64,000 bases of DNA from Eledone cirrhosa (taxonomy: Eukaryota): the NCBI GenBank assembly GCA_964016885.1, contig OZ024753.1:26784001-26848000 (forward strand). The letters are read 5' to 3'. The position numbers and the translations under genes were made by a program. Below, piece after piece: positions 3,001 through 62,224 of this stretch; position 1 is the first letter of the stretch, and every line of letters starts with the position of its first letter. The notes under the pieces were generated by a model. That model was not told where the DNA came from, did no database searches, and worked only from the letters and a program-made list of their open reading frames with translations.

Positions 3001-3258
3001 AGGAAGATGAAAGACCAAGGGAGCACCCCTTCTCTGTGCTCCTGAGGAAAAGGGTTGCACACTTTTTTCTGAGTGGAGTGCGACCCCCAAGGCGCCTCCT
3101 CTCTATTGAGGATTTTGTTATATATTTTATTCTGTTATATTTTATTTTATTTTTATATTTTGTTATTGCCTCCTCCTTATTGAGGACGCCTTGTTTTGTA
3201 AACTCCCCCCTTTGTACTTGTCCCACTTTTGATACCCTGGTGGCAAATAAAAGAAACA
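1..3258 (+). mobile_element. Tx1/L1-clade non-LTR retrotransposon, copy A (5' part outside window): end of APE endonuclease, RT, C-terminal Cys finger, 3' UTR
   Basis: ORF 102-2753 has YLDRFLV/SDH (APE end), GPGYWKLN, KSPGLDGLP, FRPITLLN, LDQSKAFDRVDH, RQGCPLS, AYADDV and CPRC..EETVAHALVHC. It continues out of frame at a poly-C run into 2764-3045. The element ends ...GTGGCAAATAAAAGAAACA directly on the satellite. Confidence 0.93.
102..3045 (+). pseudogene. Tx1-like ORF2 (endonuclease/reverse transcriptase), frameshifted at poly-C 2721-2738
   Basis: ORF track 102..2753 plus 2764..3045, with RT motifs as above. Confidence 0.88.
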
Positions 3259-6200
3259 TATCTCTGTGTAAATATAGAAGTGTATATTACTATAGTACTC
3301 TAGCCATCTCTGTGTAAATATAGAAGTTTATATTACTATAGTTCTCTAGCCACATCTGTGTAAATATAGAAGTGTATATTACTACAGTTTTCTAGCCATC
3401 TCTGTGTAAATATAGAAGTGTATATTACTACAGTTTTCTAGCTATCTCTGTAAATATAGAAGTGTATATTACTATAGTTCTCTAGCTATCTCTGTAAATA
3501 TAGAAGTGTATATTACTACAGTTTTCTAGCAATCTCTGTGTAAATATAGAAGTGTATATTACCATAGTTCTCTAGCCATCTCTGTGTAAATATAGAAGTG
3601 TATATAACTATAGTTCTCTAGCTATCTCTATGTAAATATAGAAGTGTATATTACTATAGTTCTCTAGCTATCTCTGTGTAAATATAGAAGTGTATATTAC
3701 TATAGTTTTCTAGCTATCTCTGCGTAAATATAGAAGTGTATATTACTATAGTTCTATAGCTATCTCTGTGTATATTACTATAGTTCTCTAGCCAGCTCTG
3801 TGTAAATATAGAAGTGTATATTACTATAGTTCTCTACCTATCTCTCGGTAAATATAGAAGTGTATATTACTATAGTTCTTTAGCTATCTCTGTGTAAATA
3901 CAGAAGTGTATATTACTATAGTTCTCTAGCCACCTCTGTGTAAATATAGAAATGTATATTACTATAGTTCTATAACTATCTCTGTGTAAATATAGAAGTG
4001 TATATTACTATAGTTCTCTAGCCACCTCTGTGTAAATATAGAAGTGTATATTACTATAGTTCTCTACCTATCTCTCGGTAAATATAGAAGTGTATATTAC
4101 TATAGTTCTCTAACCATCTCTGTGTAAATATAGAAGTGTATATTACTATAGTTCTCTAACCATCTCTGTGTAAATATAGAAGTGTATATTACTATAGTTC
4201 TCTAGCTATCTCTGTGTAAATATAGAAGTGTATATTACTATAGTTCTCTAACCATCTCTGTGTAAATATAGAAGTGTATATTACTATAGTTCTCTAGGTA
4301 TCTCTGTGTAAATATTGAAGTGGATATTGCTATAGTTCTCTAGCCACCTCTGTGTAAATATTGAAGTGGATATTGCTATAGTTCTCTAGCCAGCTCTGTG
4401 TAAATATTGAAGTGTATATATATACACTTCTATATTTACATAGGGCTGGCTAGAGAACTATAGTAATATACACTTCTATATTTACACAGAGATAGCTAGA
4501 GAACTATAGTAATATACACTTCTATATTTACACAGAGCTGGACAGAGGGCCCGGTGAAGTTGCTCGGGGTCTGGTTCGGACCGGACCTCCAGGTGGAGAA
4601 AAACTGGGCGGAGGTTACGAACAGGGTGTTTGCACTGACCCAGAAGTGGGCCAGTTGCAAACTATCCCTGAAAGGTCGGGCGGAGGTGGCGAACACCTAC
4701 ATAGCGTCCGTCATCTACTACCGCCTGACCGTAGTGCCCTGCCCAAGGGAAACCCTCACCAAGATGGAGCGCGCACTCTTCCAATTCCTTTGGAAGAGGC
4801 GGGCTACTATGGTGAGGAGATCCAGCTATCTCTGTGTAAATAAAGAAGTGTATATAACTATAGTATTCTAGCAATCTCTGTGTAAATATAGAAGTGTATA
4901 TTACTATAGTTCTCTAGCGACCTCTATGTAAATATAGAAGTGTATATTACTATAGTTTTCTAGCAATCTCTGTGTAAATATAGAAGTGTATATTACTATA
5001 GTTCTCTAGCCAGTTCTGTGTAAATATAGAAGTGTATATTACTATAGTTCTTTAGCCATCTCTGTGTAAATATAGAAGTGTATATTACTATAGTTCTCTA
5101 GCCACCTCTGTGTAAATATAGAAGTGTATATTAATATAGTTCTCTACCCACCTCTGTGTAAATATAGAAGTGTATATTACTATAGTTTTCTAGCTATCTC
5201 TGTGTAAATATAGAAATGTATATAACTACAGTTTTCTAGCAATCTCTGTGTAAATATAGAAGTGTATATTACCATAGTTCTCTAGCTATCTCTGTGTAAA
5301 TATAGAAGTGTATATAACTATAGTTTTCTAGCCATCTCTGTGTAAATATAGAAGTGTATATAACTATAATTCTCTAGCCAGCTCTGTGTAAATATTGAAG
5401 TGTATATTGCTATAGTTCTCTAGCCAGTTCTGTGTAAATATAGAAGTGTATATTACTATAGTTCTTTAGCCATCTCTGTGTAAATATAGAAGTGTATATT
5501 ACTATAGTTCTCTAGCCACCTATGTGTTAATATAGAAGTGTATATAACTACAGTTTTCTAGCTATCTCTGTGTAAATATAGAAGTGTATATTGCTATAGT
5601 TCTCTAGCCAGTTCTGTGTAAATATAGAAGTGTATATTACTATAGTTCTCTAGCTATCTCTATGTAAATATAGAAGTGTATATTACTATAGTTCTATAGC
5701 TATCTCTGTGTATATTACTATAGTTCTCTAGCCAGCTCTGTGTAAATATAGAAGTGTATATTACTATAGTACTCTAGCCACCTCTGTGTAAATATAGAAG
5801 TGTATATTACTATAGTTCTCTAGCTATCTCTGTGTAAATATAGAAGTGTATATTACTATAGTTCTCTAGCCACCTCTGTGTAAATATAGAAGTGTATATT
5901 ACTATAGTTTTCTAGCCATCTCTGTGTAAATATAGAAGTGTATATTACTATAGTTTTCTAGCTATCTCTGTGTAAATAAAGAAGTGTATATAACTATAGT
6001 TTTCTAGCTATCTCTGTGTAAATATAGAAGTGTATATAACTATAGTTTTCTAGCCATCTCTGTAAATATAGAAGTGTATATAACTATAGTTTTCTAGCTA
6101 TCTCTGTGTAAATATAGAAGTGTATATAACTATAGTTTTCTAGCTATCTCTGTGTAAATAAAGAAGTGTATATAACTATAGTTTTCTAGCCATCTCTGTG

Positions 6201-8300
6201 TAAATATAGAAGTGTATATAACTATAGTTTTCTAGCCAGCTCTGTGTATATATTGAAGTGTATATTACTATAGTTCTCTAGCTATCTCTGTGTAAATATA
6301 GAAGTGTATATAACTATAGTTCTCTAGCCAGTTCTGTGTAAATATAGAAGTGTATATAACTATAGTTCTCTAGCCAGTTCTGTGTAAATATAGAAGTGTA
6401 TATTACTATAGTTCTCTAACCAGCTCTGTGCAAATATAGAAGTGTATATTACTATAGTTCTCTAGCCATCTCTGTGTAAATATAGAAGTGTATATTACTA
6501 TAGTTCTCTAGCCACCTATGTGTTAATATAGAAGTGTATATAACTACAGTTTTCTAGCTATCTCTGTGTAAATATAGAAGTGTATATTGCTATAGTTCTC
6601 TAGCCAGTTCTGTGTAAATATAGAAGTGTATATTACTATAGTTCTCTAGCTATCTCTATGTAAATATAGAAGTGTATATTACTATAGTTCTATAGCTATC
6701 TCTGTGTATATTACTATAGTTCTCTAGCCAGCTCTGTGTAAATATAGAAGTGTATATTACTATAGTACTCTAGCCACCTCTGTGTAAATATAGAAGTGTA
6801 TATTACTATAGTTCTCTAGCTATCTCTGTGTAAATATAGAAGTGTATATTACAATAGTTCTCTAGCCACCTCTGTGTAAATATAGAAGTGTATATTACTA
6901 TAGTTTTCTAGCCATCTCTGTGTAAATATAGAAGTGTATATTACTATAGTTTTCTAGCTATCTCTGTGTAAATAAAGAAGTGTATATAACTATAGTTTTC
7001 TAGCTATCTCTGTGTAAATATAGAAGTGTATATAACTATAGTTTTCTAGCCATCTCTGTAAATATAGAAGTGTATATAACTATAGTTTTCTAGCTATCTC
7101 TGTGTAAATATAGAAGTGTATATAACTATAGTTTTCTAGCTATCTCTGTGTAAATAAAGAAGTGTATATAACTATAGTTTTCTAGCCATCTCTGTGTAAA
7201 TATAGAAGTGTATATAACTATAGTTTTCTAGCCAGCTCTGTGTATATATTGAAGTGTATATTACTATAGTTCTCTAGCTATCTCTGTGTAAATATAGAAG
7301 TGTATATAACTATAGTTCTCTAGCCAGTTCTGTGTAAATATAGAAGTGTATATAACTATAGTTCTCTAGCCAGTTCTGTGTAAATATAGAAGTGTATATT
7401 ACTATAGTTCTCTAACCAGCTCTGTGCAAATATAGAAGTGTATATTACTATAGTTCTCTAGCCAGTTCTGTGTAAATATAGAAGTGTATATTACTATAGT
7501 TCTCTAACCAGCTCTGTGTAAATATAGAAGTGTATTTTACTATAGTTGTCGAGCTATCTCTGTGTAAATATAGAAGTGTATATTACTATAGTACTCTAGC
7601 CACATCTGTGTAAATATAGAAGTGTATATTACTATAGTTCTCTATTACTATAGTTGTCTAGCTATCTCTGTGTAAATATAGAAGTGTATATTACTATAGT
7701 ACTCTAGCCACATCTGTGTAAATATAGAAGTGTATATTACTATAGTTGTCTAGCTATCTCTGTGTAAATATAGAAGTGTATATTACTATAGTTCTCTAGC
7801 CATATTTGTGTAAATATAGAAGTGTATATTACTATAGTTCTCTAGCCAGCTCTCTGTAAATATAGAAGTGTATATTACTATAGTTCTCTACCTATCTATC
7901 GGTAAATATAGAAGTGTATATTACTATAGTTCTCTAACCATCTCTGTGTAAATATAGAAGTGTATATTACTATAGTTCTCTAACCATCTCTGTGTAAATA
8001 TAGATGTGTATATAACTATAGCTCTCTAGCCAGCTCTGTGTAAATATAGAAGTGTATATTACTATAGTTCTCTAGCTATCTCTGTGTAAATATAGAAGTG
8101 TATATTACTATAGTTCTCTAGCCATCTCTGTGTAAATATAGAAGTGTATATAACTATAGTTTTCTAGCTATCTCTGTGTAAATATAGAAATGTATATAAC
8201 TATAGTTTTCTAGCTATCTCTGTGTAAATATAGAAGTGTATATTACTATAGTTCTCTAGCCATCTCTGAGTAAATATAGAAGTGTATATAACTATAGTTT
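3259..8300 (+). repeat. 46-bp satellite array, block 1 (monomer ~ATCTCTGTGTAAATATAGAAGTGTATATTACTATAGTTCTCTAGCC/T)
   Basis: TAGCC recurs at 3301 and 3347 (period 46). About 100 degenerate monomers; ~996-bp higher-order duplication (5515 vs 6511, 5691 vs 6687). Confidence 0.98.
4537..4819 (+). mobile_element. Internal Tx1 RT-region fragment embedded in the satellite, next to a local satellite inversion (4420-4540)
   Basis: Nearly identical to 1780-2063 (VKLLGVWFGPDLQVEKNW...). Confidence 0.92.
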
Positions 8301-8592
8301 AAAATAATAATAATAATGAAATTATTGTGTACAGTGCTCAGGTGCACTACAACTCATCAAAGGTGCATGTATAGTACATAGAATAATGTACAAATGTCAG
8401 GAAAATAAACAGTGTATGAGTCATGATATAATAACAATAACAATAATGAAATATTGTGTACAGTGCCCAGGTGCACCACAACTCATCAAAAAAGTGCATG
8501 TACAGTACATAGGGCAATGCACAAACATCAGTAAAATGAACAGTGCATGAGTCATGATACACACATGTGTGCATGTGTATGGAAGGGGTACA

Positions 8593-10371
8593 TCAGGTGT
8601 AGTTTTGGCGTATTTCGGGAAGCATGAGTGTCTTAAAGGATGCAGTGTCTCGGCAGCTAACAATTGACGCAGGCAGTTTGTTCCATGCTTCAGCAACTCT
8701 GAGCGTGAAAAAATGTCTGCGAAAGTCATGGGAGCTGTGCTGTTTTCTTATCTTGTAGGCATGTCCACGTGTGTTAGACACATGGAGATCAAAGAGGCGC
8801 TCAGGGTTGCAGTTGGCGAGATGGTTAAAAACTTTGTGGGTATTCACCAAGTCCATTGCCAGACGTCGGAGCTTCAATGAATCCATGCCCAGGGAAGCAA
8901 GGCGTTCAGAGTATGGTAGGTGTCTGATGGAGGGTATGCGCTTGGTTGCACGTCTCTGAACAGTTTCCAGGAGGTCAATGTTCCGAGCAAGATAGGGGTT
9001 CCAGACTGATGATGCGAATTCCAAGAGTGGTCGCACCATAGCTGTATACAGTTTTAAATAGATGGCTGGAGAGCGGCTAACAAAGGTCTTGCTGAGTGAT
9101 GCCAAGACACCCTCGGCCTTCTTGACAATCTTAGAGACATGCTTTGTCCAACGCAAATCGTTGCTGACAGTAATGCCCAGGTCACGTTCACAAGAGGACT
9201 TTTTGATGTCAGTGTTGTGGAGGGAGTATGTGGACGCTGGATTTTTCCTTCCAAAATGCATGGTGGTACACTTGTCCACAGCCAGCTTCAGTTGCCAGTC
9301 TGTGATCCATTGCTGCATTGTGTCCATGTCTGATTGTAGGAAAGAGTTGTAAATTTCAGGATCAGTCCTTTTGATTTCAAGGTACAGCTTGATGTCATCT
9401 GCATATTTTAATACCGTGGCATTCTGTAAGTTGGCATCTATGTCATTAATATATGCCACAAACAAAAGAGGACCAAGAACAGATCCCTGTGGTACACCAG
9501 ATGACATCTCATATGGTGAAGAATGCTGTCCTAGAACCGTGACTACTTCCTTTCGGCTGAGAATGAAGGATTTCAGCCAGTCGAAAAGATCATTCCTCAC
9601 ACCCATTGCAGAGAGTTTTGCCATAAGTCTTTTGTGTGGCACAGAATTAAAAGCCTTAGCAAAGTCAAGGTAAACAACATCCACCCATGAGCCGCTGTCA
9701 GTGATCCGGGTGATGTCCTCAAGGAACTCGATAAGCTGATCACAGCAGCTGGAGTTAGGGATAAATCCAAACTGTGAGGGCCGGATGAGGCTGTGAGAGC
9801 TCCAGAAGTTCCAAAGTGTTTCTCTGACACAGGATTCCATCAGTTTGGCCATACAGCTAGTAAGACTGACTGAACGATAGTTGACAGGTGACATGCGGTT
9901 GCCCTTTTTGAACAGGGGAATGACACTGGCAGTTTTCCACTGCTCCGGAGTAGCACCATTGCTGAGACAGTATTGAAAGAAAAAAGAAAGCTGGCGCAAA
10001 AGGAAATCCCCGCCACGTTTGAGAAGCAGGTATGTCACACCATCAAGACCAGGGGAGGCATAGTTGCGCTTATTCTTAAGGTGACGTCGCAACATTGCAG
10101 GTGTAAATTCCATAGTTGTTATGGAATTTGATGTTAGAGATGGTGGAGATGGTACATTCTGGTTTTCAACAGTAAAAATACTTGCATAGCACTCAGCAAT
10201 GAGTTCTGCGCATTCCTTGGGATCGTCAGTGATCTGGCTTGTGTGGGGATTGCGAAGAGGACCAACTGGAGAGTGAGGTCTCTGCTTTGAATGAACATAT
10301 TTCCAGAACACCTTACTGTCAGGATTGGTTGCGATGCACTGTTCAAATTCAAGCACTGCCTTCTTTGTCAC
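8593..10371 (-). CDS. CR1-clade reverse transcriptase (ORF2 C-terminal part)
   Basis: Canonical non-LTR RT motifs. Separated from the endonuclease frame by a stop and a frameshift near 10500-10545. Confidence 0.9.
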   Translation of the reverse strand: MTKKAVLEFEQCIATNPDSKVFWKYVHSKQRPHSPVGPLRNPHTSQITDDPKECAELIAECYASIFTVENQNVPSPPSLTSNSITTMEFTPAMLRRHLKNKRNYASPGLDGVTYLLLKRGGDFLLRQLSFFFQYCLSNGATPEQWKTASVIPLFKKGNRMSPVNYRSVSLTSCMAKLMESCVRETLWNFWSSHSLIRPSQFGFIPNSSCCDQLIEFLEDITRITDSGSWVDVVYLDFAKAFNSVPHKRLMAKLSAMGVRNDLFDWLKSFILSRKEVVTVLGQHSSPYEMSSGVPQGSVLGPLLFVAYINDIDANLQNATVLKYADDIKLYLEIKRTDPEIYNSFLQSDMDTMQQWITDWQLKLAVDKCTTMHFGRKNPASTYSLHNTDIKKSSCERDLGITVSNDLRWTKHVSKIVKKAEGVLASLSKTFVSRSPAIYLKLYTAMVRPLLEFASSVWNPYLARNIDLLETVQRRATKRIPSIRHLPYSERLASLGMDSLKLRRLAMDLVNTHKVFNHLANCNPERLFDLHVSNTRGHAYKIRKQHSSHDFRRHFFTLRVAEAWNKLPASIVSCRDTASFKTLMLPEIRQNYT

Positions 10372-10541
10372 TTGCTTGAGATGGTTAAAAGATTTATTCC
10401 GCTTTTTTCTGTTGGCATCTGATCTATGCAGTTTATATTCCCGTTCAGCGTTCCGACGTTCTTTCCTGGCAAGTCGGACCGCTGAAGTTTCCCAGATTGC
10501 ACTTTTGGGTTATTTTTCCGCTTCCGTGGCACTGATGCTGC

Positions 10542-11354
10542 TCACGCTATCCATATTGAGTCCAGGATGCTCTGGAGTATAGAGTTCACATCTCCAGAGT
10601 TATAGATCTCATGCCAGTTTGGGCGCTGTAGCTCAGTGCAGTACAAGTTCCAATCCGCCCTCTTCCAATCAAAGCAAGCAGATTGGAGATGGCTCTGGTT
10701 TTTGTTGTTGCCCTCAAGTGCCAAATTGGCATTGATCATAGCATGATCAGAGTCGCCTAGAGGTTCCTCAGTAGTACAACTGATAACCACTTCAGGAGTA
10801 GTGGTGAAGATCAGGTCCAAAGTGTTGTCACCTCTTGTTGGAGAGGTGACTACTTGTGACCAGTTTGAGTCCAGCACTAGTTCAAGGAAATCATTTGCAC
10901 CCTGTGGCCAACGGAAGGTTTCCCAATCGATCTCAGGATGATTGAAGTCACCTGCAATAAACACATAAGTGGCTGTTTTCTTGGCAGCAACTCTGAGGAT
11001 ATCGCAAAGCTGTGTGTCCTGATGGTAGTTTGGGGGGCGATAAACAACACCAAGCAGAAGTGTTGACATGGTCATACGTATGTCACAGAAAAAAACTTCT
11101 TCCTGTGATTCGTTCAAATCAACGCAAGGAATTACCGAAATGTTTGAACAAACGTAGACCATCACACCACCACCACGGCGGTTATTGCGGTCCTTGCGGA
11201 AAAGGTTGTACCCAGTAATGATGAAAACCCCATCACAGAGTAAGGAATGTGCCCATGTTTCCGTGACTGTGATGAAGTCAGGGTCGATGCTTCTGACGTA
11301 GGATTCGAACAGATGTATCTTGTTGCATAAACTGCGAGCATTTAAGGACAACAA
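10542..11354 (-). CDS. CR1-clade APE endonuclease (ORF2 N-terminal part, prematurely stopped)
   Basis: LSLNARS, ETW, YRPP, GDFN, PTRGDNTLDL and SDH motifs. Confidence 0.88.
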   Translation of the reverse strand: MLSLNARSLCNKIHLFESYVRSIDPDFITVTETWAHSLLCDGVFIITGYNLFRKDRNNRRGGGVMVYVCSNISVIPCVDLNESQEEVFFCDIRMTMSTLLLGVVYRPPNYHQDTQLCDILRVAAKKTATYVFIAGDFNHPEIDWETFRWPQGANDFLELVLDSNWSQVVTSPTRGDNTLDLIFTTTPEVVISCTTEEPLGDSDHAMINANLALEGNNKNQSHLQSACFDWKRADWNLYCTELQRPNWHEIYNSGDVNSILQSILDSIWIA

Positions 11355-11410
11355 TTTGTACCCTGCTCGCAGTTTATGATGGTGTGTAGAGGGTGGCAGG
11401 TTGTTCTGGT

Positions 11411-12043
11411 TTAGTTTCCCAGAGTTGTAGCAGTTTTTACATTGCCAGTTATTGTGGGTAGATCACACTCAGACCAGCTGGTATCTCTCTTCCACGTTTC
11501 ACCAGCCTTGACAAACCTCCAGATCCGCCCATCATCACGTAGACTGAAACTTTCATCTTGTGCTGAGTTCCGATTCAAGGAAGCTGCAGCACGTAGTTTT
11601 GGACGTACATGGGGTGGTAGGCCTGGGCGTGTTCGGAAGGTAATCCGATTTTCACGCCCAGCTTTAGCAGAGGCCAGATGATATGAGGTTGCCTCTGCGG
11701 GGTCCGAGAAAGACAGCCTGATGAGTCTGGGTTTTGGACCAGGTCGACCAAGGTGGAGGGCACCCTTTGGGGGAACACAGCCTAGGTTTTTGGCTGAGCT
11801 GGCAGCAAATGCCTGAAGATCAGCCTTGTCCTCTGGTGCCCCAATGGCAATCACTTCATGGGTAGCAGATTCCGCAGTCTTTTCCGTCTTTCCAGCAAGA
11901 GGTACAGGGAGATTCTTTAGCAAGGCATTCCGATAAGACCCCTCATTGTGGAGTCCTACCCGAATGCTTGCCTCTATTCCTGCAACTTCCCTTCTCAGAG
12001 CAGAAATCATTAGCTGCAGTTCCGCAAAATCTGTACTGGTCAG

Positions 12044-12140
<97 letters not shown>

Positions 12141-12765
12141 TGCTGCTGTCGTTGTTGGTGATGATGATGTTCCTCCACGGGAATGGCAGGGGAGGACACA
12201 GTCGCAGGTTGTTGCTGTTGTTGGTGATGATGATGTTCCTCCACGGGAATGGTAGGGGAAGACACAGTCACCAGTTGTTGGTGTCGAGATGTACTGGGAG
12301 TGGAAGACATGGGTTGTTGTTGTTTCTGATGTTCTCCCACAGGAATAACAGTAGAAGCCAGTGTCATAGGTTTTTGCCGTTGTTCAGTAACAATGGTAGA
12401 GGAAGACACAGTCATTGGTTTTTCAATAACATTAATAACATTCGTGGAGGCAGGCACACAGGCCAGACACTGAAAGGACCAGGATTTTAGCTGGACCATC
12501 TCCCATATTCCATCCATCATAGCATTATGATGTCTCTTTTTTTGGCCTGGGATCCTCCGGAAGCCTTTGGCGCATTGAAGGCAGACAGAGATGCGACAGG
12601 TTCCACATTCGACCCAGCGATTACGGAACGAGTTTTCGGGTTCCGCACAGATATGGCAGATGTGATTTTCTGGGCAATGTTCTATCTGGGGACATCAGCC
12701 GGTTTTGTCGCATATTTCATCGATGGATATCACCATGGCAATTTTGTTATTTCTACCCATCCGTA
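11411..12765 (-). CDS. CR1 ORF1 with a PHD-like Cys finger (frameshifted near 12525) and a 35-Gln tract
   Basis: Manual minus-strand translation upstream of 12520 gives CHIC...WVECGTC...VCLQC, completed by WSFQCLAC in ORF 11411..12520. (CAA/CAG)35 at 12044-12148. Confidence 0.75.
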
Positions 12766-13680
12766 GAAAAACACAGAATGTAAACAATATAGGTTTAGCG
12801 CACTTGATTACGATAGAAATAAAATGTCTGTTTGTTTGTGTATTTTGTTTCCGTTTTCCTAAATGTTGTGTGTGTACAGAAGAGTCTGAATTACATTACA
12901 TGTAAACAAATAAATATGCTGCGTAAGTTAAATGAAACGTACTGTAGAAGGCAGTTGTTTATTAACAGCGAAATAAGGTTTTTTTTTTTTTTTAGCCATC
13001 TCTGTGTAAATATAGAAGTGTATATTGCTATAGTTCTCTAGCCAGCTCTGTGTAAATATTGAAGTGTATATTGCTATAGTACTCTAGCCACCTCTGTGTA
13101 AATATAGAAGTGTATATAACTATAGTTCTCTAGCTATCTCTATGTAAATATAGAAGTGTATATTACTATAGTTCTATCTAAGTGTATATTACTATAACTA
13201 TCTCTGTGTAAATATAGAAGTGTATATTACTATAGTTCTCTAGCCACCTCTGTGTAAATATAGAAGTGTATATTACTATAGTTCTCTAGCCACCTCTGTA
13301 GATATAGAAGTGTATATTACTATAGTTCTCTAGCCATCTCTGTGTAAATATAGAAGTGTATATAACTATAGTTCTCTAGCTATCTCTATGTAAATATAGA
13401 AGTGTATATTACTATAGTTCTATCTAAGTGTATATTACTATAACTATCTCTGTGTAAATATAGAAGTGTATATTACTATAGTTCTCTAGCCACCTCTGTG
13501 TAAATATAGAAGTGTATATTACTATAGTTCTCTAGCCACCTCTGTAGATATAGAAGTGTATATTACTATAGTTCTCTAGCCATCTCTGTGTAAATATAGA
13601 AGTGTATATAACTATAGTTCTCTAGCCACCTCTGTAGATATAGAAGTGTATATTACTATAGTTCTCTAGCTATCTCTGTG

Positions 13681-15686
13681 TGTAGCGGTTGTCTCCCTTG
13701 TTTTGATTAGGATCTAGACGGGAAGTGGAACCCTTTCTGCAACTTCCGGTCAGAGCCCTATAAAACTAACAACTTTGGGCTTCCTCTCTCTCTTTGCCTT
13801 TTCGGCACCAGGTCAAGAGTCTTCTCATTTGGCTCTGCCATTAATTTGGCCAACAGGCGCCTGGCTAAGGCCAGGCGCCCTCTGCCAGTCGCATTTGCCT
13901 GGCAATCAAAACGGTAACTACTAACTTTGTTTCATTCTAACATCTATCTTTGACATGTCAAGTATTCTATCTACCGTTAATTAAATATTATATACACAAA
14001 CACCACTCGTTTTGTTACATTCATTCAACCAGTAATCACGCTATATTGGTAACCCTGACGTGATACGAACACGCAGCCGTTCATCGCTATAAGTGGTCAC
14101 CCCCAAAAAAAGAAAAAAATAGCACATCTGGTTTTGTGAGTAACATTACGAATACACAGCAAATTTAGCGACAAACTATGAAAATACTCAAGGACACGCA
14201 CACACGCACATGTGGAATTCGCACAGACATACTTTTTCTCTCACGCATCAATTAACTGTCGCATTTCACCAATATATATATATATGTTTCTCGTTTCTTA
14301 CAACGAACACTTTCAAAACAAAAAAAAAACATTTCACGATATATATATATATATGTTTCTCGTTTCTTACAACGAACTCTTTCAAAACACAAAAAAAAAA
14401 AAAAAAAGTTCTAGTTTTTTGTTTTTTTCCAAAGTTCACACCTATAATTATGCTGATTGAAGCCTTTCTTTTTCATCATGGTCACTTTCAAAATTGCACT
14501 ATCATTTTCTCGCGCGTTAGAAATATTTTTTTTCAACCTTGTATTGGCACGTGTAGGCAGCATAAATTCTCGATTCACTGAGATGTCTCTTACTCACAGA
14601 CAGCCGCACGCCAGAGATAGCATTTCTCCCCCAAGGATTCTTCAGCCTTAAGCTATATTCTTCTATTTGCCGGTTTATAAGTTTACAATGTAAATTTACC
14701 GTTGATAACCGCGCATTTATTAAGAATGCTTATTTCTCTGGTCGCTGGCCTCTTGACCCTTCCAGGTCAACGCATTCTCAACATCGACCATCAACTTCGG
14801 CTGCTATTTCTAGCACTTTGCGCAACTCATTTTTTTTCTAAAAAAAAAATTTTTTACTGTGAATTTAAACACCGAATACGCTCACTCAGCGAGACAACAG
14901 CAGCAGCAACAGCAATACAGCTTCACCAAAGCCAGAGAATTCATTTTTGCAGCACTCTTCCTGTGAGAAAATCCATTCGGAGGTTGGAAATTTCACGATG
15001 TACCACAGAACAGAAACCACCTGCATTCATTCTCTGGAGCACACTTTCTTTCCAGCTGTCATGTGATTGCACACCTGTGAACTATATTTTGAACTTTGAG
15101 CTCTTCTATTACTTTTACTTTATTACATTGTATCTTTGGGTGATGGATAGATGGATGTCCAGTCGTTCTCTGGCCAAGAGCGGTTGGCTACCTTGATATC
15201 TATCATTGATTTTTCCAAACATTCTTTTGTCGTAATTTTCATGCCTGTTACAACATTCTCGCCAACTTGCTACATATTTTCATTTCGATTTTTATACACT
15301 AAAATTCTGGCGGGAGGTTATGTAGCGGTTGTCTCCCTTGTTTTGATTAGGATCTAGACGGGAAGTGGAACCCTTTCTGCAACTTCCGGTCAGAGCCCTA
15401 TAAAACTAACAACTTTGGGCTTCCTCTCTCTCTTTGCCTTTTCGGCACCAGGTCAAGAGTCTTCTCATTTGGCTCTGCCATTAATTTGGCCAACAGGCGC
15501 CTGGCTAAGGCCAGGCGCCCTCTGCCAGTCGCATTTGCCTGGCAATCAAAACGGTAACTACTAACTTTGTTTCATTCTAACATCTATCTTTGACATGTCA
15601 AGTATTCTATCTACCGTTAATTAAATATTATATACACAAACATTGTCTCGTTTTGTTACATTCAAACAACCAGTAATCCCGCTATA
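13681..15686 (+). mobile_element. Non-autonomous LTR retrotransposon (TRIM/LARD-like); LTRs 13681-14045 and 15321-15686
   Basis: ~365-bp direct repeats TGTAGCG...CGCTATA; PBS at 14047; purine tract GGCGGGAGG just before 15321; no gag/pol motifs in the interior. Confidence 0.92.
14047..14078 (+). promoter_or_regulatory. Primer-binding site complementary to the 3' end of tRNA-Trp
   Basis: TGGTAACCCTGACGTGATACGAACACGCAGCC versus the reverse complement of the metazoan tRNA-Trp 3' end as I recall it (TGGTGACCCCGACGTGATTCGAACACGCAGCC). Confidence 0.85.
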
Positions 15687-15750
15687 GTTCTCTAGCTATC
15701 TCTGTGTAAATATAGAAGTGTATATTACTATAGTTCTATCTAAGTGTATA

Positions 15751-15875: not shown

Positions 15876-18800
15876 AGCCATCTCTGTGTAAATATAGAAG
15901 TGTATATTGCTATAGTTCTCTAGCCAGCTCTGTGTAAATATTGAAGTGTATATTGCTATAGTACTCTAGCCACCTCTGTGTAAATATAGAAGTGTATATA
16001 ACTATAGTTCTCTAGCTATCTCTATGTAAATATAGAAGTGTATATAACTATAGTTCTCTAGCCACCTCTGTGTAGATATAGAAGTGTATATTACTATAGT
16101 TCTCTAGCCAGCTCTGTGTAAATATAGAAGTGTATATTACTATAGTTCTCTAGCGACCTCTGTGTAAATATAGAAGTGTATATTACTATAGTTTTCTAGC
16201 AATCTCTGTGTAAATATAGAAGTGTATATTACTATAGTTCTCTAGCTATCTCTGTGTAAATATAGAAGTGTATATTACTATAGTTCTCTAGCTATCTCTG
16301 TGTAAATATAGAAGTTTATATTACTATAATTCTCTAGCTATCTGTGTAAATATAGAAGTGTATATTACTATAGTTCTCTAACCAGCTCTGTGTAAATATA
16401 GAAGTGTATATAACTATAGTTCTCTAGCCATCTCTATATAAATATAGAAGTGTATATTACTATAGTTCTCTAGCTATCTCTGTGTAAATATAGAAGTGTA
16501 TATTACTATAGTTCTCTAGCCATCTCTGTGTAGATATAGAAGTGTATATAACTATAGTTCTCTAGCTATCTCTATGTAAATATAGAAGTGTATATTACTA
16601 TAGTTCTCTAGCTATCTCTGTGTAAATTACTATAGTTCTCTAGCCATCTCTGTGTAAATATAGAAGTGTATATTACTATAGTTCTCTAGCTATCTCTATG
16701 TAAATATAGAAGTGTATATGACTATAGTTCTCTAGCTATGTCTGTGTAAATATAGAAGTGTATATTACTATAGTTCTATAACTATCTCTGTGTAAATATA
16801 GAAGTTTATATTACTATAGTTCTCTAGCTATCTCTGTGTAAATATAGAAGTGTATATTACCATAGTTCTCTAGCTATCTCTATGTAAATATAGAAATGTA
16901 TATTACTATAGTTCTATAACCATCTCTGTGTAAATATAGAAGTGTATATTACTATAGTTCTCTAGCCACCTCTGTGTAAATATAGAAGTGTATATTACTA
17001 TAGTTCTCTAGCCACCTCTGTAGATATAGAAGTGTATATTACTATAGTTCTCTAGCCATCTCTGTGTAAAGATAGAAGTGTATATAACTATAGTTCTCTA
17101 GCCACCTCTGTAGATATAGAAGTGTATATTACTATAGTTCTCTAGCTATCTCTGTGTAAATATAGAAGTGTATATTACTATAGTTCTATCTAAGTGTATA
17201 TTACGCAGCATATTTATTTGTTTACATTACATGTAAACAAATAAATATGCTGCGTAAGTTAAATGAAACGTACTGTAGAAGGCAGTTGTTTATTAACAGC
17301 GAAATAAGGTTTTTTTTTTTTTTTAGCCATCTCTGTGTAAATATAGAAGTGTATATTGCTATAGTTCTCTAGCCAGCTCTGTGTAAATATTGAAGTGTAT
17401 ATTGCTATAGTTCTCTAGCTATCTCTGTGTAAATATAGAAGTGTATATTACCATAGTTCTCTAGCTATCTCTATGTAAATATAGAAATGTATATTACTAT
17501 AGTTCTATAACTATCTCTGTGTAAATATAGAAGTGTATATTACTATAGTTCTCTAGCCACCTCTGTGTAAATATAGAAGTGTATATTACTATAGTTCTCT
17601 AGCCACCTCTGTAGATATAGAAGTGTATATTACTATAGTTCTCTAGCCATCTCTGTGTAAATATAGAAGTGTATATAACTATAGTTCTCTAGCCACCTCT
17701 GTAGATATAGAAGTGTATATTACTATAGTTCTCTAGCTATCTCTGTGTAAATATAGAAGTGTATATTACTATAGTTCTATCTAAGTGTATATTACGCAGC
17801 ATATTTATTTGTTTACATTACATGTAAACAAATAAATATGCTGCGTAAGTTAAATGAAACGTACTGTAGAAGGCAGTTGTTTATTAACAGCGAAATAAGG
17901 TTTTTTTTTTTTTTTTAGCCATCTCTGTGTAAATATAGAAGTGTATATTGCTATAGTTCTCTAGCCAGCTCTGTGTAAATATTGAAGTGTATATTGCTAT
18001 AGTTTTCTAGCTATCTCTGTGTAAATATAGAAGTGTATATTACTATAGTTCTCTAGCCACCTCTGTGTAAATATAGAAGTGTATATTACTATAGTTCTCT
18101 ACCTATCTCTCGGTAAATATAGAAGTGTATATTACTATAGTTCTCTAGCCACCTCTGTGTAGATATAGAAGTGTATATTAATATAGTTCTCTAGCCACCT
18201 CTGTGTAAATATAGAAGTGTATATAACTATAGTTCTCTAGCTATCTCTATGTAAATATAGAAGTGTATATAACTATAGTTCTCTAGCCACCTCTGTGTAG
18301 ATATAGAAGTGTATATTACTATAGTTCTCTAACCACCTCTGTAAATATAGAAGTGTATATTACTATAGTTCTCTAACCAGCTCTGTGTAAATATAGAAGT
18401 GTATATTACTATAGTTCTTTAGCTATCTGTGTGTAAATATAGAAGTGTATATTACTATAGTTCTGTGTAAATATAGAAGTGTATATTACTATAGTTCTCT
18501 AACCAGCTCTGTGTAAATATAGAAGTCTATATTACTATAGTACTCTAGCCACCTCTGTAAATATAGAAGTGTATATTACTATAGTTCTCTAGCCATCTCT
18601 ATATAAATATAGAAGTGTATATAACTATAGTTCTTTAGCCAGCTCTGTGTAAATATAGAAGTGTATATTACTATAGTTCTCTAGCCATCTCTGTGTAAAT
18701 ATAGAAGTGTATATTACTATAGTTCTCTAGCTATCTCTGTGTAAATATAGAAGTGTATATAACTATAGTTCTCTAGCCATCTCTATATAAATATAGAAGT

Positions 18801-20726
18801 GTATATAACTATAGTTCTTTAGCCAGCTCTGTGTAAATATAGAAGTGTATATTACTATAGTTCTCTAGCCATCTCTGTGTAAATATAGAAGTGTATATTA
18901 CTATAGTTCTCTAGCTATCTCTGTGTAAATATAGAAGTATATGTTACTATAGTTCTCTAGCTATCTCTGTGTAAATATAGAAGTGTATATTACTATAGTT
19001 CTATAGCTATCTCTGTGTAAATATAGAAGTGTATATAACTATAGTTCTCTAGCCATCTCTGTGTAAATATAGAAGTGTATATTACTATAGTTCTCTAGCC
19101 ATCTCTGTGTAAATATAGAAGTGTATATTACTATAGTTCTCTAGCCATCTCTGTGTAAATATAGAAGTGTATATTACTATAGTTCTCTAGCCACCTCTGT
19201 GTAAATATAGAAGTGTATATTACTATAGTTCTCTAGCCATCTCTGTGTAAATATAGATGTGTATATTACTATAGTTCTCTAGCTATCTCTGTGTAAATAT
19301 AGAAGTGTATATTACTATAGTTCTCTAGCCATCTCTGTGTAAATATAGAAGTGTATATTACTATAGTTCTCTAGCCATCTCTGTATTAATATAGAAGTGT
19401 ATATTACTATAGTTCCTAGCTATCTCTGTGTAAATATAGAAGTGTATATTACTATAGTTCTATAACTATCTCTGTGTAAATATAGAAGTGTATATGACTA
19501 TAGTTCTCTAGCCATCTCTGTGTAAATATAGAAGTGTATATTACTATAGTTCCTAGCTATCTCTGTGTATATTACTATAGTTCTCTAGCTACCTCTGTGT
19601 AAATATAGAACTGTATATTACTATAGGTCTTTAGCCATCTCTGTAAATATAGAAGTGTATATTACTATAGTCCTCTACCTATCTCTGTGTAAATATAGAA
19701 GTGTATATTACTATAGTTCTCTAGCCATCTCTGTGTAAATATTGAAGTGTATATTACTATAGTTTTCTAGCTATCTCTGTGTAAATATAGAAGTGTATAT
19801 TACTATAGTTCTATAACTATCTCTGTGTAAATATAGAAGTGTATATGACTATAGTTCTCTAGCTATCTCTGTGTAAATATAGAAGTGTATATTACCATAG
19901 TTCTCTAGCTATCTCTATGTAAATATAGAAATGTATATTACTATAGTTCTATAACTATCTCTATGTAAATATAGAAGAGTATATTACTATAGTTCTCTAG
20001 CCACCTCTGTGTAAATATAGAAGTGTATATTACTATAGTTTTCTAGCTATCTCTGTGTAAATATAGAAGTGTATATTACTATAGTTCTCTAGCTATCGCT
20101 GTGTAAATATAGAAGTGTATATTACTATAGAACTCTAGCCACCTCTGTGTAAATATAGAAGTGTATATTACTATAGTTCCTAGCTATCTCTGTGTAAATT
20201 ACTATAGTTCTCTAGCTATCTCTATGTAAATATAGAAGTGTATATTTCTATAGTTCTCTAGCTATCTCTATGTAAATATAGAAGTGTATATTACTATAGT
20301 TCTCTAGCTATCTCTGTGTATATTACTATAGTTCTCTAGCTACCTCTGTGTAAATATAGAACTGTATATTACTATAGGTCTTTAGCCATCTCTGTAAATA
20401 TAGAAGTGTATATTACTATAGTCCTCTACCTATCTCTGTGTAAATATAGAAGTGTATATTACTATAGTTCTCTAGCCATCTCTGCGTAAATATAGAAGTG
20501 TATATTACTATAGTTCTCTAGCTATCTCTGTGTAAATTACTATAGTTCTCTAGCCATCTCTGTGGAAATATAGAAGTGTATATAACTATAGTTCTCTACC
20601 TATCTCTGTGTAAATATAGAAGTGTATATTACTATAGTTCTCTAGCCATCTCTGTGTAAATATAGAAGTGTATATTACTATAGTTCTCTAGCTATCTGTG
20701 TAAATATAGAAGTGTATATTACTATA

Positions 20727-21450
20727 CACACTTGGAATTCACATCATCAGTCTGGAACCCCTATCTTGCTCAGAACATTGACCTCCTGGAAACTGTTCAG
20801 AGACGTGCAACCAAGCGCATACCCTCCATCAGACACCTACCATACTCTGAACGCCTTGCTTCCCTGGGCATGGATTCATTGAAGCTCCGACGTCTGGCAA
20901 TGGACTTGGTGAATACCCACAAAGTTTTTAACCATCTCGCCAATTGCAACCCTGAGCGCCTCTTTGATCTCCATGTGTCTAACACACGTGGACATGCCTA
21001 CAAGATCAGAAAACAGCACAGCTCCCATGACTTTCGTAGGCATTTTTTCACGCTCAGAGTTGCTGAAGCATGGAACAAACTGCCTGCGTCAGTTGTTAGC
21101 TGCCGAGACACTGCATCCTTTAAGACACTCATGCTTCCCGAAATACGCCAAAACTACACCTGATGTACCCCTTCCATACACATGCACACGTGTGTATCAT
21201 GACTCGTGCACTGTTCATTTTACTGATGTTTGTGCATTGCCCTATGTACTGTACATGCACTTTTTTGATGAGTTGTGGTGCACCTGGGCACTGTACACAA
21301 TATTTCATTATTGTTATTATTATTATATCATGACTCATACACTGTTCATTTTCCTGACATTTGTACATTATTCTATGTACTATACATGCACCTTTGATGA
21401 GTTGTAGTGCACCTGAGCACTGTACACAATAATTTCATTATTATTATTAT
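20727..21450 (+). mobile_element. 5'-truncated CR1 copy (RT C-terminus + 3' UTR) in the satellite
   Basis: Near-identical reverse complement of ~8304-9025; ORF 20732..21163; (ATT)n tail. Confidence 0.93.
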
Positions 21451-21606
21451 AGTTCTCTAGCTATCGCTGTGTAAATATAGAAGTGTATATTACTATAGTT
21501 CTCTAGCTATCTCTGTGTAAATATAGAAGTGTATATTACTATAGTTCTCTCGCTATCTCTGTGTAAATATAGAAGTGGATATTACTATAGTTCTCTAGCT
21601 ATCTCT

Positions 21607-21671
21607 CGGAAAGCGGTGTCGGCCTACGCCGATGACGTGACAGTAATGGTGTTGACGGCCTCCGAAATCGG
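21607..21671 (+). mobile_element. 65-bp Tx1 RT fragment (encodes RKAVSAYADDVTVMV) inside the satellite
   Basis: Matches 1587-1651. Confidence 0.9.
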
Positions 21672-21926
21672 CCTCTGTGTAAATATAGAAGTGTATATAA
21701 CTATAGTTCTCTTGCTGGGGATGGACACACGCGTATAACTTGCTGAGTAAGTTCTGTTTAAATTTCTATAGAAATTCTTGTCTGTAAACTTTAATTTTTG
21801 TACCATTTTGTAGAGGGACTGCCAGGTCAAACTTTGATCTGGTCAATCTCTCAAAATATTCTACGCCTTTAGGCGAAATAGTTAAACAAAAAGGGTTTTT
21901 TTGTTGAAAAGTTAACATTTTTTTAA

Positions 21927-23619
21927 ATGGCTGAAACTTCTTCACCAAAATTCGAAGGAGGAAAGGGGAAGATAAGCTTACAGCTTCCCCCTGCCACTGT
22001 CACAGTAGCAGAGGTCAAAAACAAAGGTCAGCCAGAGGAAGGATTTTCTCCACTTGCTGACCGACAACTTGACGTTGCCATGGCAACAAACCAAAGAACC
22101 AGTGGCACCAGCAATAACAACAACAACAACAATGCTATGGACGAAAACAACACCAATAACAATACCAACAACAACAAGACCAATAACTGTGATAACAACA
22201 ACAGCAACACAAACAAGGAAAAAGTCTCCTTCGCCCAGACGGCAAGGAAAACCCTAGACTATCTGCCAGTAGATATAACCAAAGCGAAGGAGCTACTAGC
22301 AGAGGCAAAAAAATACATAATGTATGGGGAGAATGGTGCGTTTTCGACCCCCCCCCCCCCCCGGAGCTAAAAAGCAAGAGACTCCTAAACACTGTCATGT
22401 TTAGGACAATCTCAAATAAAAGCAAAAAACCAGCTCAACCATCACAGAGTGAGATAGAGCTGGTTTTAAAGGACGTCATGAGCGACGTCACATTCATCCA
22501 GAAGGATAGACTCTACGGGAGTCTATCCATTCTCATGAAGGACAGGGACACAGCAGTGAAACTGTCCATCAAACCAATCACATCCACCGCATACACCTTC
22601 TACCCTACCTACATGGGTAGAAGGACACAAAAAATAAAAATCCACACCATCCTGCCGATTATGGACATATGGTGGGTTTTGACAGGTTTCCTGAACCTGG
22701 ATGATGACATGCTGGTGTCCATGGGAAAGGCATCGGGTGACGCGTTCAGTGGAACGAGCCTCGAACTTGTAGTTCAAATGAGGCCCGAAAGGATCGCCCA
22801 GATCCCTGAACGCGTCATACTGGATGATCGAACTTTCATCAACATTACTGTTGAGGGTAGGCGGCCCTCATGTTACCTCTGTGGAACCAGAGGTCACCTG
22901 AGGGCTGTCTGTCCCCAACTTGATAAGAAAACCCCAATCCTGCCTACACCACCAACAACTGCACAACCAACACAATCACCACAACTACCACTACAAAAAC
23001 AACAACCACAGCTCAAACCAAAACAAAACAATGTCCAACACATCCCCCCCACTAAAAAAAAAACAATTTGAAAAACACCCGCACTGCAAACACAACCCGA
23101 AAATATACCCCTCCCCTCCAACGCGGAAGATGACCCTAGTTTGTCGTCAGACGAGGAGGAGCACTTCCACACAATCAAAAGAAAAAAAAGAGCTCACAAC
23201 AACAGCAAACAAAAAACACCACACAAAAACAAAAACATGCATACACATACATAAACACAAGAAACAAAAAACTGTTAAACATTGTGTACAACAACAATTT
23301 AATAAAAACCCAAGGGCCTAACTTCACCCAGGCAGGGGATTTCCTCCACCTCAAAATGATTAAGGCCCCACAGGACACTTATAAAACTTGAAAAAACAAC
23401 TTTAAAGAGGACGTGGGTCCCTCCTGCGTCAGGCACATTAACCGCGTCCTCCTTAAAAACTACCTCACACCCTCCCCAAACACCCACACAACTCCAAACA
23501 CCCCAACCACACAACACACTGGTGCCCCTACACTTCCACAAACCACCACCCCACCCAACAACCCATCCCCCACCCTCATGGAAATTGAGCAGCCCGATAC
23601 CCGGGATGCAGAGAGGTAA
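21927..23619 (+). pseudogene. Tx1 ORF1 (gag-like, CCHC zinc knuckle), frameshifted
   Basis: ORFs 21927..22370, 22397..23071 and 23413..23619; CX2CX4HX4C at ~22871-22912. Confidence 0.8.
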
Positions 23620-23644
23620 GTGCCTTTTCTCTTCACCACCAACA

Positions 23645-26600
23645 TGGCTATGCTAAGAGTAGGCTGTTTAAATGCGCATGGCCTGGGCTCAACTTGGAAG
23701 CAAGCAATGCTTCTAAATGACCTCAGGTCACAACGTATAGATGTGATGGTTATTTGCGAGGCCCGGATCAGCAACGTGCGACTTTAAGATGCACGCATCT
23801 CTCTGTCAGCCCGGAGGTGGGGATGGGGTTGTCGTTCCGCTGCAAAAACATCTGGGTCTCGCAACACCGTCGGTACATTTGGACCCGGAGGGTTGACTAG
23901 TGGTTTTGGACCTTGGCAGTGGTGAAGGCGGAGCGTTTAGGTTGGTAGCCGCCTACGGCCCTTTCGGGTCAATGCGGCCGGACTTCTTCCATCGTCTGGA
24001 GACTTTTCTAGGGACGTCCCGCTCCTTGCTATTAGTGGGGGACTGGAATGGTATCCTAGATGCACGCTGGGACTACGTAGGGGCCTGTCCCGATAGAGAG
24101 GGGTGTAATAGCCTCAAAGGGTTAATCTGTCGATTTGACCTGGCCGATAGATATCGACTAGATTTTCCGACTGCGCCAACCTGGACTTGGGCAAATCGCA
24201 GCGGATCATCTAGGTCGTACCTAGATAGGTTCTTAGTTAGAAATAAGGATAAGGACTTTTTAAGTTATCCAAAAATGAGCATGGTTGGCTATTCAGACCA
24301 CAAGTTAGTGAGCTGCATGGTCAACCTTGACAGAACGCATAGACAGGGACCCGGTTACTGGAAGCTCAACTTGTCCTTACCGGCAAGTAAGGCTTACAGG
24401 GACCGGATTAGCACTTTAGTTAAGGAGCGGTTGACGGGCGTCATCGTCAACAGCATGTGGTGGGGATCTCTCAAAAGAGAGATTAGAGTAGTCTCTATAG
24501 AATTTAGTAAGGAGTTAGCCTCAAATAGAAATAGGAATGAAAGGGAGCTGGTAGATAGTGTAGAAGAGGCAATTAGAAGCGGCGACGTGTCCAGAGTGCT
24601 AGCGTCGAGAACGGCCCTGAGCCAGTTCTTCGACGCGAAACACGAAGGCTGCATCGTCCGAAGCAAAATACGTGCTCTGGGAAACGAGGGGACCAAAGCT
24701 GTTAGCTGGGCCCGCGTGACAGAAGCCAAAAGAGGGAGCAGATCCACTATCCGGTCTTTGCGAGACCAGGATGGACGGGTGATCCTTGAACCTAAGCAGA
24801 TGTGCGAGGCTTTTCAAAAGCACTTTGCCGGATTGTTCGGAAGGGGCGGGGAGCCGGTTGGGGATGTGGACTTCGGTCCATACCTCGACGGCCTGCCGCG
24901 TCTCTCGGAGAGGGAGGCGAAGTCCTGCGAGGAGCCGATTTCAGCCGCTGAGATAGAGGACATGCTGAGCCCATGCGGCAAACGCAAATCCCCGGGTCTC
25001 GATGGTCTTCCATACGAACTGTATCTAGCTATGCCGGACTTGTTCCCCGATCTCCTCGAGGCGGTCTACTGCAACTGGCAACAGAACGCGAGAATTCCCT
25101 GTGCTGTGACCAAGGGCGTAGTCATACTAGTGAGGAAGGACGAGAACAAGGGGGACGATATAAATAATTTCAGGCCCATTACAGATTTTGGCCAAGGTGC
25201 TAGCAAAGAGGTTGGCGCTTGTTGTGGGCAACCTGGTGGGAGATGCGCAGACATGTGCTATCCCGGCCAGGTCCATCCACGACAACCTCCACCTCATGCG
25301 ATACATCATAGAGAGGGTTAGGAACGAACCCGGCTTTGGTGGGGCCCTGATCAACTTGGATCAATCTAAGGCGTTCGATAGGGTCGACCATGGTTACCTG
25401 GATGCGGTGCTAGCGGCGGCAGGCTTCGGACCCGTTTTCAGGGGCTGGATCAATGCCATGCACAGCAGCCGCATCTGCTCTAGGGTCAAGGTGAACGGCT
25501 ACCTCTCGGAGCTGTTCGAAATCGCGCGGTCCATCCGACAAGGGTGCCCTCTCTCCTCCCTTCTGTATGTGATGACTCTAGAGCCACTGCTGCGGAAGTT
25601 GGAGTTGTTGCAGGGCATCCCATTGGAACCGGGATTGCGGAAAGCGGTTTCGGCCTACGCCGACGATGTAACAGTAATGGTGTCGACGGCCTCGGAAATC
25701 GGGGCGGTCGGCACCTTACTGGAGGAGTACGAAAGGTTTACAGGGGCTAAGCTAAACCGGGACAAGTCGATCGGTCTGCAACTCGGCACGTGGAGGGGCA
25801 GATCAATGCCCTCCAAAGGTGTCGTCGGGCGCTGGACGGAGGGCCCGGTGAAGTTGCTCGGGGTCTGGTTTGGACCAGACCTCCAGGTGGAGAAGAACTG
25901 GGCGGAGGTTACGAACAGGGTGTTTGCACTGACCCAGAAGTGGGCCAGTTGCAAACTATCCCTGAAAGATCGGGCGGAGGTGGCGAACACCTATATAGCG
26001 TCCGTTATCTACTACCACGTGACAGTCGTGCCTTGCCCATGGGAAACCCTCGCCAAGATGGAGCGCACGCTCTTCCAATTCCTTTGGAAGAGGCGGGCTC
26101 CTTTGGTGAGGAGTTCCATCTGCTGTCAACACCCTTCAAAAGGAGGGCTGGGGATGCCGTGGCTAATGATGCATAAACACGCATTAAGGCTACGGCACCT
26201 CCACGTATTCCTCACCGGTCAACCGGTGTGGGCCTCGTTTGTGAGACGAACCTTTCCCAGACTCGTCTCACTCACCGAGCTGCAATCCTGGGTCAAGCAA
26301 AGACTGAGAAAACTGGGCGCCTGCCACACTGAGTGTGCCCAGGCGCTCACCGACCTCTGGCAGGCGGATCCGGTTATCAGTGGAGACTCCACTGCAACAT
26401 TCTATAGAGGGCTGGTATGCAGCAGGTGCAACAACGCCCTCGGAGAAGCCCTAGACATGGATGAAGACGAACTGGCCAGCCTGTTCGGTAGGACATTCAG
26501 CCCGGGACCTATGGACAACTTCCAGAAGTCCCTGGCCTGGCAGTGCTACCGAGGGGCTCTACCCGTTCGAGAAAAGCTCTACAGACACGGGCGCCCGGGT

Positions 26601-27094
26601 AGGGACCCCGCCAAAAAGATCTGTCCCAGATGCGTGTGCGACAAGGAAACCGTTGCACACGCATTGGTACACTGCTCGGGCGTAGCCGATCTGTGGGGCT
26701 ATGTCGAACAACTGCTGTCAAGAGTGGGACCGATCCGGTTGACCACCGAGTCTATTGTAACGATCAACCCGCCCCCCCCCCCCCTTCCTTCAAAAATGAA
26801 GTAGAGGCGGTGTTTCTGTGCGTAATAGCCATTGGGAAAGAGGTTGTATGGTGGACGCGTCTGAAAGGACTGAGGTCAGGCACCTTTCTCTCTGGCCAAC
26901 AACTGGTCCGTTTCTTCCGATATCATTTCGGAAGAAGGATCAGGATGGAGAGAGAGGTGCTGCACCCCAGTCATTTTTATGAAAGGTGGGTGAAAGTGGC
27001 GAGAATGGCCCGTGTGAATGGGCCTTCTCTTTACATAAGCCTGTCGGTGGAAAAGAGGAAGGAACGAGGGAGCACCCTCTCTCTGTGCTCCTGA
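23645..27094 (+). pseudogene. Tx1 ORF2 (APE-RT-Cys finger), frameshifted near 23800, 25180 (deletion relative to copy A) and 26772-26784
   Basis: ORFs 23900..25321, 25188..26804 and 26630..27094; GDWN, YLDRF, SDH and YADD motifs. Confidence 0.88.
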
Positions 27095-27252
27095 GGAGAA
27101 GGGGTTGCACACTTTTTTATTGAGGACTTATTATTAAGTTTATTGTTAATTTTATATTTGTTATATATTTTCTTTACTCGCCTTTTCATGTAAACTCCCC
27201 CCATTGTACTTGTCCCACTTTTTGATGCCCTGGTGGCAAATAAAAAGAAACA

Positions 27253-27412
27253 TATCTCTGTGTAAATATAGAAGTGTATATAACTATAGTTCTCTAGCTA
27301 TCTCTCTGTAAATATAGAAGTGTATATCACTCTAGTTTTCTAGCTATCTCTGTGTAAGTATTACTATATTTCATATTACTATAGTTTTCTAGCCAACTCA
27401 GTGTAAATATTT
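27253..27412 (+). repeat. Terminal decaying monomers of the 46-bp satellite
   Basis: About 3-4 monomers fading into intronic sequence ~50 bp before the 3' splice site. Confidence 0.85.
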
Positions 27413-27463
27413 CATAATTATTCCATAATTCAACATGTAATCTACTATTTTGTTTTTTTGCAG

Positions 27464-60740: not shown

Positions 60741-60759
60741 TGAAGAGTTTAGCATAAAA

Positions 60760-62205: not shown

Positions 62206-62224
62206 ATCTATCTAGGACGGGTAA

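Follow-up and report, generated by a model that had tools for sequence, protein, structure and literature searches.

Two copies of a Tx1-type LINE at one position of a 46-bp minisatellite point to a probable (TATC)n target

In a 64,000-bp stretch of contig OZ024753.1 (hereafter the window, meaning the whole stretch analyzed), two diverged copies of a Tx1-type long interspersed nuclear element (LINE), copies A and B, end at the same position of a 46-bp satellite monomer. This raises the question of whether the element recognizes the satellite itself, a shorter sequence that the satellite contains, or no particular target. With moderate confidence, and judging from the sequences at the junctions, we favor the reading that A and B belong to an abundant Tx1-type family whose endonuclease likely cuts CT|ATCT of (TATC)n microsatellites (the bar marks the cut), and that they represent separate hits in a look-alike intronic minisatellite.

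The junctions of A and B in the 46-bp repeat are real. The 3′ junction is GGCAAATAAAA(A)GAAACA|TATCTCTGTGTAAATATAG in each copy, at 3258/3259 in copy A and 27252/27253 in copy B, and the satellite letters after GAAACA read on as TATCTCTGTG. The 5′ junction of copy B is ...CTATAGTTCTCTTGCT|GGGG, with the final T of the flank at 21716, and this flank, ending TTCTCTTGCT, corresponds, apart from a single change, to the adjoining upstream half of the monomer. An earlier model-made reading of the letters alone (the sequence-only reading) had described both the identical 3′ junctions and the matching 5′ flank, and both descriptions hold. With CT|ATCT as the reference point, these three junctions have phases of 0, 0, and -1/0, which implies a 1-bp duplication of T or none. 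There is no poly-A at the 3′ ends of A and B, and the same reading was correct in reporting neither a poly-A tail nor an obvious target-site duplication, the duplication being 0–1 bp. In neither copy does the 3′ terminus fold better than shuffled sequences (z 0.87 for A and 0.05 for B).

The two copies may have arrived separately, or a dead copy may have been carried along with its flanks in a single old segmental duplication. The copies are 90.7% identical, and this 9.3% divergence is about the same as that between monomers (mean pairwise difference of 9.05%; 176 units at exact 46-bp spacing). The uniform divergence that the sequence-only reading had named as the mark of a duplication is thus roughly seen, and local duplications do occur in the array (136–137-bp blocks, 100% identical). 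However, the codon test contradicts this explanation. Over 892 codons of open reading frame (ORF) 2, nonsynonymous divergence (dN) is 0.045 and synonymous divergence (dS) is 0.149, a ratio of 0.30 (Fisher p 3.6e-14); the differences are distributed 44/38/95 over the three codon positions, and dN/dS in the four ORF2 sub-regions is 0.21–0.46, in all cases <0.5. The ratio of 0.30 implies that the A and B lineages diverged while active. Divergence is also uneven along ORF2 (3% to 14%), and the 3′ untranslated regions (UTRs) are set apart by two large indels in their middle, whereas their last ~70 nt are nearly identical. The interpretation of A and B as two independent insertions is supported, and the duplication, largely refuted by the codon test, is extremely improbable. 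For a neutral comparison, the duplicated CR1 sequence in the array is too short, with 8 differences over 434 nt, of which 4 are synonymous.

We then asked whether the satellite is the general target of the family. Four public runs (X1, X2, X4, and X9, of 11 listed) were aligned to 21672–27310, a reference with both ends in satellite. The best runs contain at most 0.43 of the copy B words and X9 was chosen by its species label, so that the reads possibly come from related species. The family is abundant in the run organisms that carry the labels B and D and present in one labelled A, and read depth rises toward the 3′ end of the element, which fits 5′ truncation. Reads that leave the element into satellite are nearly absent: in X9, 1 of 167,012 raw reads passes either satellite-flanked end, against ~966 expected at the right end from a depth of 1,789 at 27242 and uniform read starts. 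Contigs behave alike, with 11 of 25,529 passing the ends in X4, 0 of 3,582 in X1, and 0 of 69,676 in X2, and the end bins of the alignment have no depth spike.

In these runs, which may represent other species, the 3′ ends do not generally continue into the 46-mer, and specificity for the 46-bp satellite is not supported. The sequence-only reading had proposed a satellite-specific family, a proposal at odds with reads and contigs that almost never continue through the satellite flanks and with an outside 3′ junction that runs into (TATC)n. Of its claim that one exact monomer position is targeted, the sequence-directed insertion in the same register is supported, and the specificity for the satellite is not. 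It had also suggested that 3′ read-through could spread the satellite. We rejected such 3′ transduction because the 5′ flank of copy B is in register and the reads do not run on past the ends.

A narrower form of satellite specificity would confine it to the source species, in which the A and B lineages would recognize the 46-bp repeat specifically, perhaps having shifted from a TATC-targeting ancestor. Both canonical copies in the window lie in the array in the same register, 11 X4 contigs do pass the ends, the runs tested may be from other species, and Tx1 families that target satellites are on record (legend of Fig. 3 in PMC4494074). On the other hand, close relatives are represented in the data (copy-A-type letters at 24729; 3,344 X4 contigs at 99%+ likeness) and almost never pass the satellite flanks, the depth spike is missing, and the sole outside 3′ junction among the rows listed is (TATC)n. 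We consider this version unlikely.

The evidence for a (TATC)n target comes from junction rows of the same alignments; the rows listed comprise 15 joints (of 1,211), 12 between-letter rows (of 214), and 24 loose ends (of 7,043). The sole 3′-end row among the 12 between-letter rows listed is a joint in X9 (27245->25974; 78 reads, 1 start), in which (TATC)5T comes directly after GAAACA, in the same register as A and B, and leads into 22 letters from another piece of the element. Thus, one junction sequence, GAAACA|TATCT, is common to the independent copies A and B and to one outside copy (n = 3). Compared by eye with copy B, 22 of the 24 loose ends listed are diverged element sequence and another, at 23782, is probably element sequence absent from copy B. 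The one that carries flank lies before 26454 in X4, where a 13-letter run of TATC/TGTC type comes first and element-like letters follow. In the window itself, a 5′-truncated relative (relative C, 59890..60722, plus strand, 72% identical to B) has its truncation point directly after the window's only (ATCT)3. Relative C is fused to an RTE piece that extends to 62204, and a 12-bp direct repeat, TATCTATCTAGG, flanks the two together at 59879 and 62205. It is ambiguous as target evidence because the RTE partner may have chosen the site. The whole segment (59879–62216), a Tx1 3′ fragment joined to a 5′-truncated RTE with a (GAT)n tail, is possibly a product of chimeric retrotransposition by template switch.

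No satellite specificity is needed for a family that reads CT|ATCT to hit the array in register. Every monomer has AGC(T/C)|ATCT; among 216 plus-strand cores in the array, the T variant TAGCTATCTC occurs in 59, and a T-variant monomer contains AGCT|ATCT. The array region holds 109 occurrences of CTATCT, and the 36,590 bp past its end hold 27. By analogy with target-primed reverse transcription, which is established for APE LINEs, the endonuclease would place its nick in the bottom strand, opposite CT|ATCT. The end released there would anneal to an RNA that lacks poly-A and perhaps continues into UAUC repeats for a few bases, priming cDNA synthesis, and a top-strand cut 0–1 nt away would give a seamless join with no clear duplication. 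The array would then act as a decoy, dense in look-alike sites.

Several observations weigh against this reading. The TATC support is thin, consisting of one 3′ junction with a single read start and a 22-letter side, and the far letters of the loose end at 26454 may rest on 1 of 3 contigs. The 12-bp duplication around relative C is unlike the 0–1 bp of copy B, and the RTE may have picked that site. The outside junctions are few and possibly from other species, given runs with at most 0.43 of the copy B words, and with so few junction rows listed the share of copies in TATC is not derivable. Finally, the figure of ~966 expected reads is rough, as starts of restriction site-associated DNA reads are not uniform.

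Two further explanations need no TATC-reading endonuclease. The (TATC)n could be the element's own 3′ tail, comparable to the (GAT)n of the RTE in the window, that pairs with any nicked TATCT while the endonuclease itself is loose. The missing poly-A and the TATCT that starts all three canonical 3′ junctions would agree with this, and tail repeats of RTE elements are described as correlating with target bases (PMC6007223). Nevertheless, A and B have only TATCT before the satellite letters, and TATC-type runs are also found on the 5′ side of truncated copies (at 26454 and at relative C), where a tail of the element cannot explain them; we regard a tail of this kind as quite unlikely. Alternatively, the family may prefer no target at all, the common register being an accident. 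Only two canonical insertions are available, they were noticed after the fact, and the array has trapped CR1 and LTR (long terminal repeat) elements as well. Yet a random second insertion into the array (10,522 of 64,000 bp) in the same register and on the same strand has a post hoc chance of ~0.002, the other inserts (CR1, LTR, and templated pieces) have junction phases spread from -16 to +10, and the GAAACA|TATCT join recurs at an outside junction, which makes coincidence very unlikely. Returning to the (TATC)n target, we can also sketch an extended scenario that we think improbable as a whole. A cephalopod Tx1 endonuclease would read just the six bases CT|ATCT, the intronic minisatellite would be a hotspot of seamless integration in which repeated nicks seed templated LINE pieces and inversions, and specificity in the source species would be shifting from (TATC)n to the satellite.

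The structure of the copies is that of the L1 group (L1/Tx1), with ORF1 and an ORF2 carrying an N-terminal APE domain, reverse transcriptase (RT), and a C-terminal zinc finger. Copy A (1..3259, plus strand) has its 5′ part outside the window and a 3′ UTR that ends GAAACA(T). Its ORF2 (3–2753, 916 aa) runs from the C-terminus of the APE domain through RT and zinc finger (RVT_1 E 4e-25; zf-RVT E 9e-6), with a frameshift in a C-run near 2730–2740. Copy B (21717..27253, plus strand) is full length and broken by stops and frameshifts, and a 20-bp deletion at 25179 removes bases that are present in other copies in the sequencing runs. Its frameshifted ORF1 (21927..23071, plus strand) may reach further 3′ and has no Pfam match; a CCHC knuckle (CYLCGTRGHLRAVC) was recognized by eye. 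An ORF1 with a CCHC zinc knuckle is typical for the Tx1 clade. ORF2 of copy B (23645..27050, plus strand, end approximate) contains the APE motifs N, E, Y, GDWN, D, and SDH by eye and matches PF03372 with E 1e-4, under the curated cut-off.

Among solved structures, copy A best matches human L1 ORF2p (152 bits), with R2 at 74 bits. Against named fish Tx1-type proteins it scores 261–316 bits for five of six and 210 for Q76IM7; Q76IM5 and Q76IM7 are presumably the Kibi/Koshi deposits. A (TC)n-flanked metagenomic element scores within the same 261–316 bits, with an identity of ~29%. In a tree built without L1 rows and with a long-branch CR1 as sole outgroup, copy A falls on a separate branch with its 40–70% relatives (support 98/100). 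The assignment by the sequence-only reading to the Tx1 clade thus stands as far as an APE-RT LINE of Tx1 type is concerned, and membership of the clade itself is likely. Among named proteins, the closest is one from Argonauta hians (62%), and look-ups of protein clusters gave names for Argonauta and Paramuricea proteins only. The ESM Atlas returned generic RT clusters only, the exact 3′-end pattern had 0 matches in metagenome contigs, and viral contigs yielded nothing for ORF2 or for the 46-bp monomer. A protein-alignment scan of the collections produced 109 candidate stretches and 5 loci, all distant (24–29%) and none of the A/B family. The (TC)n-flanked element (positions 1–5678 of its locus) is a complete two-ORF Tx1-type element with an ORF2 of ~1,300 aa and (TC)n on both sides; it is Kibi-like, 47–51% identical to the named fish Tx1-type proteins, and likely represents fish DNA in a metagenome.

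Kojima (2015; PMC4494074) gives as known Tx1 targets Tx1D, U2, transposons, and the microsatellites (TC)n, (TTC)n, and (TTCC)n/(TTTC)n, to which the legend of Fig. 3 adds ‘Sat, satellites’; PMC3812793 gives the target classes ACAY, AC, TC, TTC, and TAA. The sequence-only reading therefore went too far in suggesting an undescribed kind of element, satellites being already among the Tx1 targets. The closest parallels are Kibi in (TC)n, Koshi in (TTC)n, and the crocodilian Tx1 elements in (TTCC)n/(TTTC)n, likewise two-ORF APE-RT LINEs that prefer a microsatellite (PMC4494074; PMC3812793). The A/B family differs from Kibi and Koshi in its TATCT junctions, which are not (TC)n or (TTC)n, and in its separate branch; it likely targets (TATC)n, and its host is likely an octopod. 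Xenopus Tx1L also occupies a fixed position in a repeated unit, with Tx1 inserting into Tx1D (PMC4494074). The A/B family is set apart from Tx1L and from satellite-targeting Tx1 elements in that its satellite is seemingly not the general target and its duplication is 0–1 bp. For Tx1L the duplication is reportedly 23 bp. YURE in U2_sat is likewise an occasional insertion into a satellite with the family's target motif, but its endonuclease is of the RLE (restriction-like endonuclease) type and its satellite derives from the U2 gene (PMC4640811).

For Octopus vulgaris, Table 1 of PMC13282606 counts 421 insertions for 13 L1-Tx1 families of recent activity, without target sites, and the A/B family may already be among them. 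We found no TATC- or GATA-targeting Tx1 element in the literature, although Repbase, subscription papers, and the supplements of PMC4494074 lay outside the search and may list one; the accessible parts of PMC3747384, PMC8869645, PMC10294476, and PMC8967140 hold nothing on targets. The (TATC)n target of the A/B family would most likely be an addition to the known microsatellite-targeting Tx1 class. If it is correct, it adds a further microsatellite class for APE-type site-specific LINEs and opens no new kind of system. A look-alike that is not a microsatellite, struck twice at the same base, provides a natural test of the endonuclease's word length, and the case bears on shifts of target specificity and on site-specific retrotransposons as insertion tools.

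The array that received both copies extends over 3259..21716 (plus strand, Tandem Repeats Finder), interrupted by CR1, LTR, and templated inserts, and 3.4 further monomers (27253..27410, plus strand, same program) form the 3′ flank of copy B and the array end; in total, satellite covers 10,522 of the 64,000 bp. Rfam gave no match at gathering score in the window, and there is thus no sign of the monomer belonging to an RNA gene; a monomer dimer folds no better than shuffles (z 0.63). Downstream, at 27463..27550 (plus strand), lies a V-type ATPase subunit E exon with AG/GT bounds (PF01991, E 1.3e-6, model positions 161–188 of 199). Because this exon follows the array and both LINEs, all of them are likely located in the preceding intron.

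Two internal ORF2 pieces of the family in the array, both on the plus strand, are likely templated insertions. The piece at 4548..4820, beside two inverted monomers, is of the A lineage (8 differences to A vs. 17 to B in 272 nt), and a 65-bp RT piece at 21607..21671, 45 bp from copy B, is yet closer to A (2 differences vs. 6, counted by eye). The ORF2 pieces in 4430–4820 and 21607–21671 are joined to monomers via short microhomologies. The idea that templated pieces mark endonuclease nicks gains no backing from their phases (-7, +6, +1), which are no different from those of the CR1 and LTR junctions (-16 to +10).

Among the other inserts, a two-ORF CR1-type LINE (8300–12992, minus strand) retains long open frames (APE 306 aa, RT 638 aa) and a poly-Q tract in its ORF1. 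An inverted CR1 3′ piece at 20727–21441 (plus strand) is 98% identical to it, and the 3′ ends of both CR1 copies lie near a palindrome of the monomer, ACTATAGT. At 13682–15681, two 360-bp direct repeats (98%, LTR-like) enclose ~1.3 kb in which no ORF was recognized; a related piece is found near 37420–37600. Three identical inserts of 136–137 bp (15738–15874, 17188–17323, and 17779–17915) copy the CR1 5′ end and start with a fold-back (hairpin), reflecting either an assembly artifact or template switching at the locus with subsequent tandem duplication. Outside the array, an element with ~100-bp terminal inverted repeats (34910–35375) sits within a 99/191-bp tandem repeat and contains, on its minus strand, a piece resembling a Tx1 3′ UTR and two GTGGCAAATAAA motifs. 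Lastly, a 328-aa open frame at 55878–56864 (plus strand) has no Pfam match, and we take it to resemble the C-terminal GIY-YIG region of a Penelope-like element.

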